A stretch of 64,000 bases of DNA from Candidatus Pacearchaeota archaeon. Its GTDB lineage: Archaea > Nanobdellota > Nanobdellia > Pacearchaeales > GW2011-AR1. The stretch lies in contig JASFEO010000003.1 of the NCBI GenBank assembly GCA_050124795.1, positions 1-64,000 on the forward strand, given 5' to 3'. Positions within the stretch are counted from its first letter, which is position 1; each line of letters begins with the position of its first letter. Below are positions 1-1,704 of this stretch, one piece after another. Both the position numbers and the translations under genes were made by a program. The notes under the pieces are model-generated. The model did no database searches and was not told the origin of the DNA. It was given only the letters and a program-made list of their open reading frames with translations.

Positions 1-25
1 CATATTGAACTTGAAGTTTTGCCAT
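1..25 (-). CDS. 5' end of a cassette-borne ORF (MAKLQVQY...), truncated by the window edge
   Basis: Minus-strand ATG at 25 is open to the edge; TATA-like TATTTAAA at 55-48 lies about 23 nt upstream; located just past the attC-like crossover at 116-114. Confidence 0.5.
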
Positions 26-109
26 AATAATGAGAGATTTGCAGAGATTTAAATAATTATCGTTAACGCACAACAACCTTTTATTTTGGAGAAAAATAAT
101 TTTAATTAG

Positions 110-202
110 ACATAACATTAGGTTAAGCGAAGTTTTCCGACGGAGGAGGAAAATTTGGGAGAGCCCCGAGCCGAGGGGCGAACCGCTTAACTTATGTTTC
201 AC
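110..202 (-). mobile_element. attC-like recombination site (copy 1)
   Basis: Minus strand reads GTGAAAC-ATAA-GTTAAGCG...CGCTTAAC-CTAAT-GTTATGT; imperfect 93-bp palindrome with two internal hairpins; the tandem repeat boundary falls at the AAC/GTT triplet. Confidence 0.75.
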
Positions 203-862
203 GACCCGACGACGAAGGAGGAGAGCGCAGCGTGGCACGAGCGGAGCAGCTTCAAATATTGCGACCTCGTGAGTTGGAATTTGCCCCCGACCGATTTCTT
301 AGCGTAGTTGTCGTCATAAACTTTTTTACATAACCCATTTTTCCCGACGACAATTTCGTTTAATCAGCGTGTTATGCGATGTTTTTATTTCACATTGGAG
401 CGTTAAACGAAGCAAGGAATCTGCAAGGTCGGGGGTTTATCGACGGTGATTTCAGTGTTTACTGCCGACAAATTTCAATTTTGAGAAACATTAGGTTAAG
501 CGAAGTTTTCCGACGGAGGAGGAAAATTTGGGAGAGCCCCGAGCCGAGGGGCGAACCGCTTAACTTATGTTTCACGACCCGACGACGAAGGAGGAGAGCG
601 CAGCGTGGCACGAGCGGAGCAGCTTCAAATATTGCGACCTCGTGAGTTGGAATTTGCCCCCGACCGATTTCTTAGCGTAGTTGTCGTCATAAACTTTTTT
701 ACATAACCCATTTTTCCCGACGACAATTTCGTTTAATCAGCGTGTTATGCGATGTTTTTATTTCACATTGGAGCGTTAAACGAAGCAAGGAATCTGCAAG
801 GTCGGGGGTTTATCGACGGTGATTTCAGTGTTTACTGCCGACAAATTTCAATTTTGAGAAAC
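114..862. repeat. Exact tandem duplication of a 373-bp unit (114-486, 487-859) bounded by AAC triplets at 114, 487 and 860; putative non-coding gene cassettes
   Basis: Direct comparison of the two copies; more GC-rich than the flanks; no convincing ORF. Confidence 0.95.
483..575 (-). mobile_element. attC-like recombination site (copy 2)
   Basis: Same as copy 1 but R' is GTTTCTC, which is 6/7 complementary to R'' GTGAAAC. Confidence 0.75.
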
Positions 863-921
863 TCCTATTACCTAAACTTTCCAATAGAAATCTTTAAATA
901 ATATGATTAACAGTAATTTTT
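856..921 (-). promoter_or_regulatory. Putative attI-like site (GGAG|TTTCTC crossover at 862/861) plus BRE/TATA (AGAAATC-TTTAAATA, 886-900) of the recombinase
   Basis: Repeat identity ends exactly after AAC 860-862; no attC palindrome here; TATA about 21 nt before ATG 922. Confidence 0.55.
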
Positions 922-1704
922 ATGCAGGAAAAAGAGCAACTTAAAATATTAAAAAAAGAATTAATGCTAAGAAAATATTCTAAAAATACAATCAAAAAAT
1001 ATATTTACTATGTTAACGCTTATCTGCAAAGCAAAAAAACCCCAAAAGAATTTGTAAGCAAATATATCCCAAAAAGTAGAAATACAATCAGAAGTGTTTA
1101 CTTTGCAATTAATTTTTTCTATAAAAATGTTCTTAAACAAAAATTCAAAGAAGAAATCCCTCTCGCAAAGAAAAAACAAGTACTCCCAAACATATTAAAT
1201 AAAACACAAGTAAAATTAATAATCGAAAAAACTCAAAACCTGCAGCATAAATTAGTGATAATGTTTCTTTATTACGCAGGATTAAGATTAAATGAAGTCA
1301 GAAATCTTAAATGGGAAAATATTGATTTTGAAAGAAAAACAATCCAACTGCAGATCGCAAAAGGAGAACATCAAAGAACAATCTTTCTTCATGAAAAATT
1401 AATTGAAACTTTAAATAAATTTAAGGTTCATAGAGAAGGCTTTGTTTTTGAGTCAAACAGAGGTAAAAAATATTCAGAAGAGTCAATTCAGAAGATTGTT
1501 AAAAACTCAACAAAAAAAGCAGGAATTAAAAAAAGGGTAACACCACATACATTGAGACATTCATTTGCAACGCATTTACTTGAAGCAGGTTGTGATATAA
1601 GAAATATACAAAAGCTTCTTGGCCATTCAAGTGTCCAAACAACGCAGATTTACACGCACGTAGCAAACAAAGATATTAAAAACTTGGCAAATTTATTAGA
1701 CTAA
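922..1704 (+). CDS. Tyrosine recombinase (XerA/XerD-like with N-terminal SAM-like domain), candidate integron-like integrase
   Basis: Catalytic residues: [31 protein letters not shown]; no IntI-type insertion between patch II and III. Confidence 0.95.

Follow-up and report, generated by a model that had tools for sequence, protein, structure and literature searches.

A probable integron-like gene-cassette system in DPANN archaea, associated with a Xer-type recombinase that lacks the IntI insertion

We analyzed a 64,000-nucleotide stretch of DNA from a Candidatus Pacearchaeota archaeon (GenBank assembly GCA_050124795.1, contig JASFEO010000003.1), hereafter the window, position 1 of which is the start of contig C3 of a metagenome-assembled genome of 1.06 Mb in 38 contigs (90% complete, 4% contamination). 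The window opens with a repeated unit bounded by folded, attC-like sites, followed by an attI-like site and a gene for a tyrosine recombinase. As the positions of the open reading frames (ORFs) bear out, this gene is transcribed away from the repeat. An earlier reading of the sequence (the original prediction) took the arrangement for a non-canonical DPANN cassette-capture system, and the sites, the linkage to one recombinase clade, and the circular-cassette signature that we found across the genome and the class support it. We consider it likely that the locus belongs to an integron-like gene-cassette system run by a Xer-type recombinase instead of IntI. On computational evidence, an analogue of the integron that lacks the I2 insertion of IntI, has dif-mimicking sites, and would be driven by a Xer paralogue throughout the class is well supported. 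The features at the locus are listed below, with a caret marking the crossover point.

1..113, + strand: flank F, the right-hand end of another cassette, closing with AATTAGACAT and then AA^C
112..202, + strand: attC-like folded element, copy 1, reading (T)AAC-A, 1-nt bulge, stem P1, GAAGTT/P2, ATTTGGG, P3, P1', TGTT
114..486, + strand: cassette-like unit U, copy 1, 373 bp, without a credible ORF, with a second conserved hairpin module at 352-412
485..575, + strand: attC-like folded element, copy 2, same sequence as copy 1
487..859, + strand: cassette-like unit U, copy 2, recognized by tandem-repeat identity
850..879, + strand: attI-like, dif-like site with the junction AA^C at 860-862
922..1704, + strand: clade-A Xer-like tyrosine recombinase of 260 aa, assigned by Pfam, structure alignment, and tree

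The 373-bp unit is repeated in tandem 2.0 times at 100% identity (114-862), and the AAC triplets named as junctions in the original prediction (114-116, 487-489, and 860-862) are present exactly where the identity between copies begins and ends. The 93-bp palindromes described there proved to be sites of 85-91 nt that form a three-way junction rather than a simple hairpin. The proposed array of two cassettes stood in part: its junctions and folded sites are real, whereas its cassettes are a single unit in duplicate, for which the ORF list of the window held no credible ORF. Taken alone, the window shows one duplicated non-coding unit beside a recombinase and is weak as an array. The guanine-cytosine (GC) content was 0.44-0.54 over most of the repeat, against approximately 0.23-0.38 in the flanking window and 0.32 in the contig. 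An Rfam scan of window positions 1-3000 with E-values up to 1 matched no family, and BLAST of positions 100-500 against plasmids gave no match.

The folded element was followed from a motif search through nhmmer to a covariance model (R1) built from 18 copies. The loose motif AACAT-N8-16-RAAGTT, with ~75 genome-wide matches, performed at roughly chance level in AT-rich DNA and was replaced by nhmmer and the covariance model. The latter revealed the further attC-like sites expected of an integron-like array, with 25 matches in the source genome, all in arrays co-oriented within every contig and confined to the start of C3, C5:25953-32427, and contigs C23, C24, C29, C30, C31, and C34. The consensus comprises (T)AAC-A, a 1-3-nt bulge, stem P1, GAAGTT opening P2, ATTTGGG, P3, P1', and TGTT-A, with a total length of 79-170 nt. 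In the seed alignment, 15 of the 26 pairs showed compensatory double changes, and G-U pairs were frequent and A-C pairs rare. This bias marks the AACAT strand as the one that folds; in DNA form, it folded better than its complement in all five elements tested (by 1.5-3.1 kcal/mol, with z-scores of -3.3 to -8.3). The + strand of the window is the folding strand and corresponds in integron terms to the bottom strand with the junction at the 5' AAC. Among 31 independent matches from seven loci of relatives, whose alignment was fitted to the covariance model and is biased towards the structure, 90.4% of the cells were paired versus 74.5% after shuffling (0 of 500 shuffles as high), and sliding the partners lowered pairing to 34-52%. 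A G.T pair between GAAGTT and ATTT was invariant in the same alignment (28 of 28 cells with letters). Imperfect palindromes with AAC...GTT ends that fold as single strands, as in integrons, are present here. The element occurred in 28 of the 61 genomes of the order and in 64 of the 151 genomes sampled across the phylum; the system is spread through the whole class and is not confined to a single lineage.

These counts bear on the reading that the window feature is merely an artefact of assembly, or non-coding DNA plainly duplicated in tandem. The repeat has the look of one: the two identical copies stand at a contig start, contigs C23 and C30 have at their ends the 125-127 nt with which the unit opens, an overlap typical of an assembly-graph repeat, and window positions 1-118/134 recur at the ends of contigs C29 and C31, so that the repeat is part of an assembly tangle with these four contigs and its copy number is uncertain. 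Unitig depths from the one public DNA run listed for this stretch, a wetland metagenome available as contigs alongside which no RNA run was listed, were 311 for the unit, 143 for the unit-unit junction, 100 for the left flank, and 37 for the recombinase contig, although contig-level depths are not copy numbers and leave tandem copies and circles indistinguishable. The unit unitig, with ~8 times the depth of the recombinase contig, makes the copy number in the contig unreliable; it was also joined to several different neighbours. These data suggest that the unit is multi-copy or common to several strains, and that the figure of 2.0 copies was the assembler's choice. Against an artefact, the unit-to-unit junction is a separate unitig in the public run, the element with its covariation is found in other genomes (28/61 and 64/151), and the evidence at the level of the system does not depend on the copy number of the window; we regard this explanation as extremely improbable. 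Loose ends in the public run repeat alternative joins at window positions 111-118, 134, 487, 492, and 588. The ORF-less unit itself may be a non-coding cassette that parasitizes the system, or an amplified one.

The position of the crossover was read from mosaic junctions. One left flank (...AATTAGACAT^AAC, 113-134 nt) precedes three different, similarly built palindromes in C3, C29, and C31, and an identical palindrome carries four different left flanks, with the switch within AACAT. We also compared the 6 nt before the next junction, i.e., the far end of a cassette, with the 6 nt after the ...TGTT of the same cassette, as follows.

38 cassettes, own genome and seven loci of relatives, 4 positions: own end 2.76, adjacent flank 1.71, permuted 1.68, 0 of 20000 as high
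21 cassettes, five genomes of other families, 5 positions: own end 4.48, adjacent flank 2.62, permuted 3.05, 0 of 20000 as high

In the first set, pairing ranged from 0.63 to 0.92 over positions -1 to -6 and dropped to background at -7 and beyond; in the second, all six positions paired in 16 of the 21 cassettes. The site and its own far end were complementary across cassettes up to 5 kb long. Because this complementarity stops exactly at the junction, the crossover lies within AACAT, between the T at -1 and the element-specific part. The crossover at AA^C (G^TT on the other strand), with the cassette's own ends completing the R box, is that of integrons. The complementarity between the start of a cassette and its R'' box in the original prediction is modest in the window unit, the last 6 nt of which, TTGAGA (481-486 / 854-859), pair only partly with the TCGTGA after its own GTT (199-204 / 572-577), and becomes convincing across many cassettes. 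The recombination point it proposed at GTT/AAC agrees with the swapped flanks, the swapped elements, and the complementarity ending at the junction. From these sequence patterns, the cassettes appear to move as discrete, circularizable units.

Several further regularities were seen around the sites. The R-box hexamers AGACAT, GCGTAT, TCGTAT, GAATAT, and TCATAT recur among genomes of different families, which suggests either that site types are few or that lineages exchange cassettes. In several genera, some cassettes carry the second hairpin module (TTTCGTTTAATCAGCG, an inner hairpin, and GGAGCGTTAAACGAAG) ~75-130 nt short of their right end, as at window positions 352-412 and 725-785, at G000:C5:28825-28887 and C23 ~12895-12930, and upstream of attI at locus L020 (G027:C30); it may be a degenerate site, a terminator, or a site for an accessory protein. 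Right after many elements and outside the three-way junction, a GC-rich tail, GACCCGAnCGA ... GAGAGCGCAGCG(T/A)GGCA, is kept across genera (window 203-240 and 576-613, C34:129-163, the upstream region of L032, and after the last elements of L114/L116). Other cassettes have an alternative tail, a hairpin plus TTAGTGCAACG-hairpin-AAAGT.

We then related the arrays to the recombinases. The 90%-complete source genome contains only two tyrosine recombinases, C3:922-1704 and C5:24013-24837, and both lie directly downstream of an array and are co-oriented with it, the C5 gene following an array of six sites. A recombinase was found in 53 of the 61 genomes of the order. The original prediction implied sites near related recombinases, and the same layout, with co-oriented elements upstream and the recombinase downstream, was present in eight relatives (G042, G027, G002, G036, G006, G047, G011, and G007) and in five arrays of four genomes from other families, where the arrays end 0.3-1.9 kb upstream of the gene (G353:C2, G356:C12, G369:C1, G369:C4, and G288:C24); in the fifth genome examined from the phylum sample, the array at G333:C3 is cut off by a contig end. 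The adjacency of recombinase and array, with fixed orientation and an attI-like site, recurs at at least 15 loci in many genera.

A tree of 62 recombinases from the 61 genomes, obtained by a quick maximum-likelihood search with approximate likelihood-ratio support of the Shimodaira-Hasegawa-like kind (SH-aLRT) only and midpoint rooting, and without an IntI or characterized XerA outgroup, has two sides, A with 25 rows and B with 37, each supported at an SH-aLRT of 98. Both recombinases of the source genome belong to side A, and the genome has no side-B gene. An element lay within 2 kb upstream of the gene in 8 of the 25 side-A rows and in 0 of the 37 side-B rows, and a contig end lay within 600 nt upstream in 11 more side-A rows and in one side-B row. 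The site labels in the tree, assigned by regular expressions, were rough; they missed the attI of the window itself and probably mislabelled rows L091 and L100. Side-B genes carry a promoter-proximal AAGTTCG half-site, often with a dyad such as AAGTTCGCACAA-N6-TTAAACGAACC upstream, and side B is probably the housekeeping XerA with its dif site. As the prediction requires, the protein of the window falls outside this putative housekeeping XerA clade of the order, in a separate clade (SH-aLRT 98); orthology with the housekeeping XerA was not found, both own genes being on side A of this midpoint-rooted tree. As a separate observation on side B, AAGTTCG(T/C)nnnA follows just after a TATA-like box at L074, L076, L077, L080, L084, L086, L087, L099, L104, and L105, and a full 12-6-12 dyad is often found 60-100 nt upstream of the gene. 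A dif-like site would then adjoin the clade-B xerA, unlike in Thermococcales, and autoregulation may be possible.

The window recombinase matched the Pfam family Phage_integrase (PF00589) at 2e-44, and its best NCBIfam match was recomb_XerA_Arch (NF040815) at 200.8 bits, below the equivalog cut-off of 220. Against integrase_gron (TIGR02249), it scored 177.5 bits, short of the cut-off of 265, and the match came in two pieces, covering only profile positions 2-180 and 237-308 and leaving ~181-236 unmatched in both recombinases of the source genome. In the comparison with IntI4 (PDB ID: 2a3v), query residues 164-184 span chain residues 177-242, i.e., 20 query residues face 65 chain residues. The alignment with XerA (PDB ID: 4a8e) ran end to end over residues 14-254, with R, K, HxxR, H, and Y conserved, and similarity to another XerA structure (PDB ID: 5hxy) was also end to end. 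The protein has the two-domain Xer fold and catalytic residues of archaeal XerA and scores below the cut-off of that family. It is Xer-like and lacks the I2 insertion, as the original prediction held of the 260-aa protein. The best 120 database homologues are ~260 aa long, and the named ones are annotated as tyrosine-type recombinase/integrase (Pacearchaeota, Nanoarchaeota, and Woesearchaeota) or XerD. A search for a clade-A-specific insertion in place of I2, relative to clade B, found none. The acylphosphatase gene at window 1706-1981 begins 2 nt past the recombinase stop, and an RNase H-like gene (RVT_3/RNase_H) lies at 2284-2739; neither is conserved beside the C5 recombinase, where a large ORF is found instead (L007 2648-4012).

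Across the 201 genomes of the order, no protein exceeded the TIGR02249 cut-off, and the matches listed all lack the IntI insertion, every alignment to this profile sitting in one of two blocks, ~1-194 or ~216-315. Screens based on IntI miss the system, as had been anticipated, and screens based on attC models may miss these sites as well, an indirect hint being that the element is in 64 of the 151 genomes sampled across the phylum whereas integrons were reported in 75 of 6718 archaeal genomes (PMC9668308). The TIGR02249 result also weighs on the possibility that the arrays are canonical clusters of attC sites lacking integron integrases (CALINs), the IntI of which remained unassembled while Xer-like genes lie adjacent by chance. 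Most reported archaeal integrons are CALINs, with six IntIs for 539 attCs in the data of PMC9668308, and metagenome-assembled genomes are fragmented. The lack of any IntI-grade match in the order, the presence of only two tyrosine recombinases in the source genome, and the oriented adjacency with an attI-like site at so many loci and in so many genera nevertheless make this very unlikely.

In the window, the attI-like site consists of a left arm, AATTTTGAGAAA (850-861, contributed by the last cassette), the spacer CTCCTA (862-867), and a right arm, TTACCTAAACTT (868-879); as in integrons, it lies beside a recombinase gene transcribed away from the array. Its general form is AATTnnnnnTAA, C-N5, and TTAAnCGAAnTT in succession, 60-90 nt upstream of the recombinase gene. 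ATT-N5-7-AAC followed by (A/C)nCT(A/T)-TTAAnCGAnnTT was present in 11 of the 15 regions inspected upstream of the gene; among the remaining four, one is cut by a contig end and three belong to side-B genes. In G002, the site AATTTCGTTTAA-CACCTT-TTAATCGAACTT forms a 12-6-12 dyad with matches at 10 of the 12 positions; the 511 kb contain just one other dyad of this kind. The attI may double as the dif site of the chromosome; GC skew and ORF-strand skew along the 511-kb G002 contig showed no turning point at the recombinase locus. Separately, the right-arm 12-mer of attI recurs inverted in the first codons of the G002 recombinase gene (C1 ~371738, + strand, coding ...SSIK...), which may be chance or an extra binding site.

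The sequence logos of 54 junctions showed an invariant AAC, T at -1 in 83%, and ATT at -9 to -7 in 90% each. On the 3' strand, the distance from ...TTAA to TGTT is constant at 4 nt, whereas on the 5' strand it varies by the 1-3 bulged bases; in linear form the arms are 7-9 nt apart, and a spacing of 6 requires that folding extrude the bulge. Once its bulge is flipped out, the element is modelled as 9 bp, a 6-bp spacer, and 12 bp, i.e., the geometry of a double-stranded dif-like site, in which the recognition arm TT(A/T)AnnGAAGTT would be made double-stranded by P1 and the base of P2. GAAGTT and ATTT, with their invariant G.T pair, would be conserved in sequence because they form this arm.

Such a geometry also invites a classical double-stranded Xer/dif system, in which units resembling dif modules or integrative mobile elements exploiting Xer (IMEXs) undergo two-strand exchange at a xerA-adjacent dif and the palindrome is a pair of inverted half-sites with no role for folding. 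It is consistent with a Xer-like recombinase that lacks I2, with the dif-like dyad of attI, with an upstream dyad at clade-B genes of the same order, and with the arm-spacer-arm reading of every junction in double-stranded form, where the conserved outer AATT, unpaired in the fold, has a place. Classical exchange, however, needs identical spacers, and those of attI (CTCCTA, CAACTT, and similar) are unlike those of the elements (CATTAG, CATCGG, and similar); the linear arms have the wrong spacing, 7-9 nt rather than the 6 found in the fold. The compensatory changes in P1, P2, and P3, the invariant G.T pair, and the bias towards G-U over A-C pairs point to a folded single strand, and the own-end complementarity points to an R box formed by intrastrand pairing. 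We consider the double-stranded alternative unlikely.

The cargo of the cassettes was examined for the C5 array; four of its nine proteins have no Pfam family, and the others are an M28 peptidase, an rve transposase, and NYN, ArsR, and 4Fe-4S proteins. The rve-family (IS481-like) transposase (G000:C5:26972-27823; L007 6973-7824, - strand) shares a three-gene cassette with the M28 peptidase and the NYN-domain gene, and apart from it no cassette-borne recombinase was seen. Across 36 cassettes, the largest ORF was co-directional with the folded strand in 22 and opposite in 14. With orientations mixed in this way, a shared Pc promoter is unlikely, and the co-directional sense is the reverse of that in canonical integrons.

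The co-directional majority, the G-U pairs including an invariant one, and the further conserved hairpins that follow the element are consistent with the elements being structured RNAs, i.e., leaders or small RNAs on variable genes, and the recombinase being incidental. This we hold to be very improbable. The main ORF lies on the other strand in the 14 cassettes mentioned, and no Rfam family was matched. Structured RNAs would also leave unexplained the sharp mosaic junctions at T^AAC, the complementarity of a site to its own cassette's far end, as much as 5 kb off, the attI half-site beside the recombinase gene, and the confinement of the elements to arrays beside one recombinase clade.

For the integron-like system, we propose the following mechanism. 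Each cassette would start, on the + strand of the window, with a folded site, in which the R box pairs nnnnnT-AAC-A with T-GTT-Annnnn; next would come 1-3 extrahelical bases, a stem of 4 bp, and the recognition arm TT(A/T)AnnGAAGTT, with P3 branching off. The recombinase, presumably the clade-A enzyme, would bind at the left arm and cleave TAA^C, and attI would swap one strand only with a cassette, circular or single-stranded, at its folded site; the analogy is with integrons and with CTX-phi as outlined in PMC7790495. Replication would probably resolve the exchange intermediate. Because the exchange would take place at attI, new cassettes would pile up next to the recombinase, each junction joining the end of one cassette to the site of the next.

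Several observations weigh against this interpretation. The evidence is wholly computational and comes from metagenome-assembled genomes, so that excision and insertion are predicted events; the source genome has 4% contamination, and strain variation or faulty binning could account for its small array contigs. The I2 helix of IntI is held, in the account of PMC7790495, to confer recombination of single strands, and nothing replaces it in the clade-A recombinases. In the fold, the left arm has only 9 bp, and the strongly conserved AATT at -10 to -7 is unpaired, so part of the recognition may need double-stranded DNA. The tree rests on a quick search, SH-aLRT, and midpoint rooting without the outgroups named above. 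Five clade-A genes with at least 0.9 kb upstream had no element match (L016, L018, L079, L091, and L110), and one more had matches only 10 kb away; some of these element-free regions look like empty attI sites. Conversely, the arrays at G015:C2 and G333:C3, the latter meeting a contig end, have no recombinase on the same contig. The ORF count of 22 against 14 and the lack of an ORF in the window's own 373-bp unit also count here.

If the integron signature does reside on a plain Xer-type enzyme, the transition from Xer to IntI becomes directly testable, and I2 would not be the sole route to cassette capture. Integron integrases have the I2 insertion as their defining feature, and PMC7790495 presents it as the innovation permitting recombination of folded single strands and, in one scenario, has it arise in a Xer-like ancestor hijacked by single-stranded IMEXs. 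We give about even chances to the bolder view of a natural integron without I2, in which a class-wide DPANN Xer paralogue would recombine a dif-like attI with folded single-stranded dif mimics to capture and shuffle cassettes, either as the long-sought stage of integron evolution preceding I2, with a Xer-like enzyme acting on single-stranded IMEX-like partners, or as an independent archaeal reinvention. For archaeal gene flow, it matters that the element reaches 64 of the 151 sampled genomes of the phylum and that screens keyed to IntI are blind to its recombinase. A compact recombinase of 260 aa with a structured, programmable-looking site could also be of interest as a tool.

Ghaly et al. 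(2022; PMC9668308) described archaeal integrons from 75 metagenome-assembled genomes among 6718 archaeal genomes; most are CALINs, and the 539 attCs are accompanied by six IntIs, each of which has the IntI domain. Some of the present arrays may be among those CALINs. The Results of that paper make no mention of a Xer-like enzyme for cassette arrays, and our full-text literature search, most matches of which were seen as listings, found no link of Xer-like recombinases to archaeal cassette arrays. The clade-A enzyme could be the missing recombinase behind integrase-less archaeal cassette clusters. The present system shares with the integrons of Bacteria and with these archaeal integrons a tyrosine recombinase that reads away from a co-oriented array, cassettes of ~0.4-5 kb separated by imperfect palindromes with an AAC start and a GTT end, the crossover AA^C on the folded ('bottom') strand with hybrid junctions and own ends that complete the R box, extrahelical bases on one strand, and cargo mostly of unknown function (here 4 of the 9 C5 cassette proteins without a Pfam match). 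It differs in that the recombinase lacks I2 and scores below the cut-off of the IntI model, a three-way junction with the conserved sequences GAAGTT and ATTTGGG replaces a free-form loop as the variable part of the site, the R box has 9-10 bp with a cassette-specific part of 6 nt, attI is a dif-like dyad, and ORF orientation is mixed.

The IMEXs of the CTX-phi type, which as portrayed in PMC7790495 use the XerCD of the host at dif by way of a folded single-stranded attP, likewise combine a Xer-type enzyme without I2 and a dif-like double-stranded target with an incoming single strand whose fold imitates dif and has a bulge at its centre, and their successive insertions give tandem arrays; here the mimicry is predicted from the fold, the geometry of which fits, and single-stranded DNA and the use of dif would follow by analogy. 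Unlike those elements, the units here are small gene cassettes and not phages, they are accompanied by a dedicated clade of Xer paralogues rather than by demonstrated use of the housekeeping enzyme, and one type of recombinase stands in place of the XerC/XerD pair. The archaeal XerA/dif system, which resolves chromosome dimers (PMC2958812, PMC8371274), resembles the present one in the similarity to 4a8e and 5hxy and in the arm-6-arm geometry of the target, whereas in Thermococcales, according to PMC2958812, the site does not adjoin the gene. The score of 200.8 against a cut-off of 220, the clade apart from the putative housekeeping clade of the order, and the arrays of folded sites that accompany clade-A genes also set the system apart from XerA/dif.

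In the pdif modules of Acinetobacter plasmids, small gene modules lie between Xer-type sites and are thought to move by Xer recombination; these are plain 28-bp double-stranded sites of alternating orientation, whereas the sites here are all co-oriented, ~80-170 nt long, and folded. Integron-like in its workings and failing the test for IntI, the system is best filed as an I2-less integron analogue.

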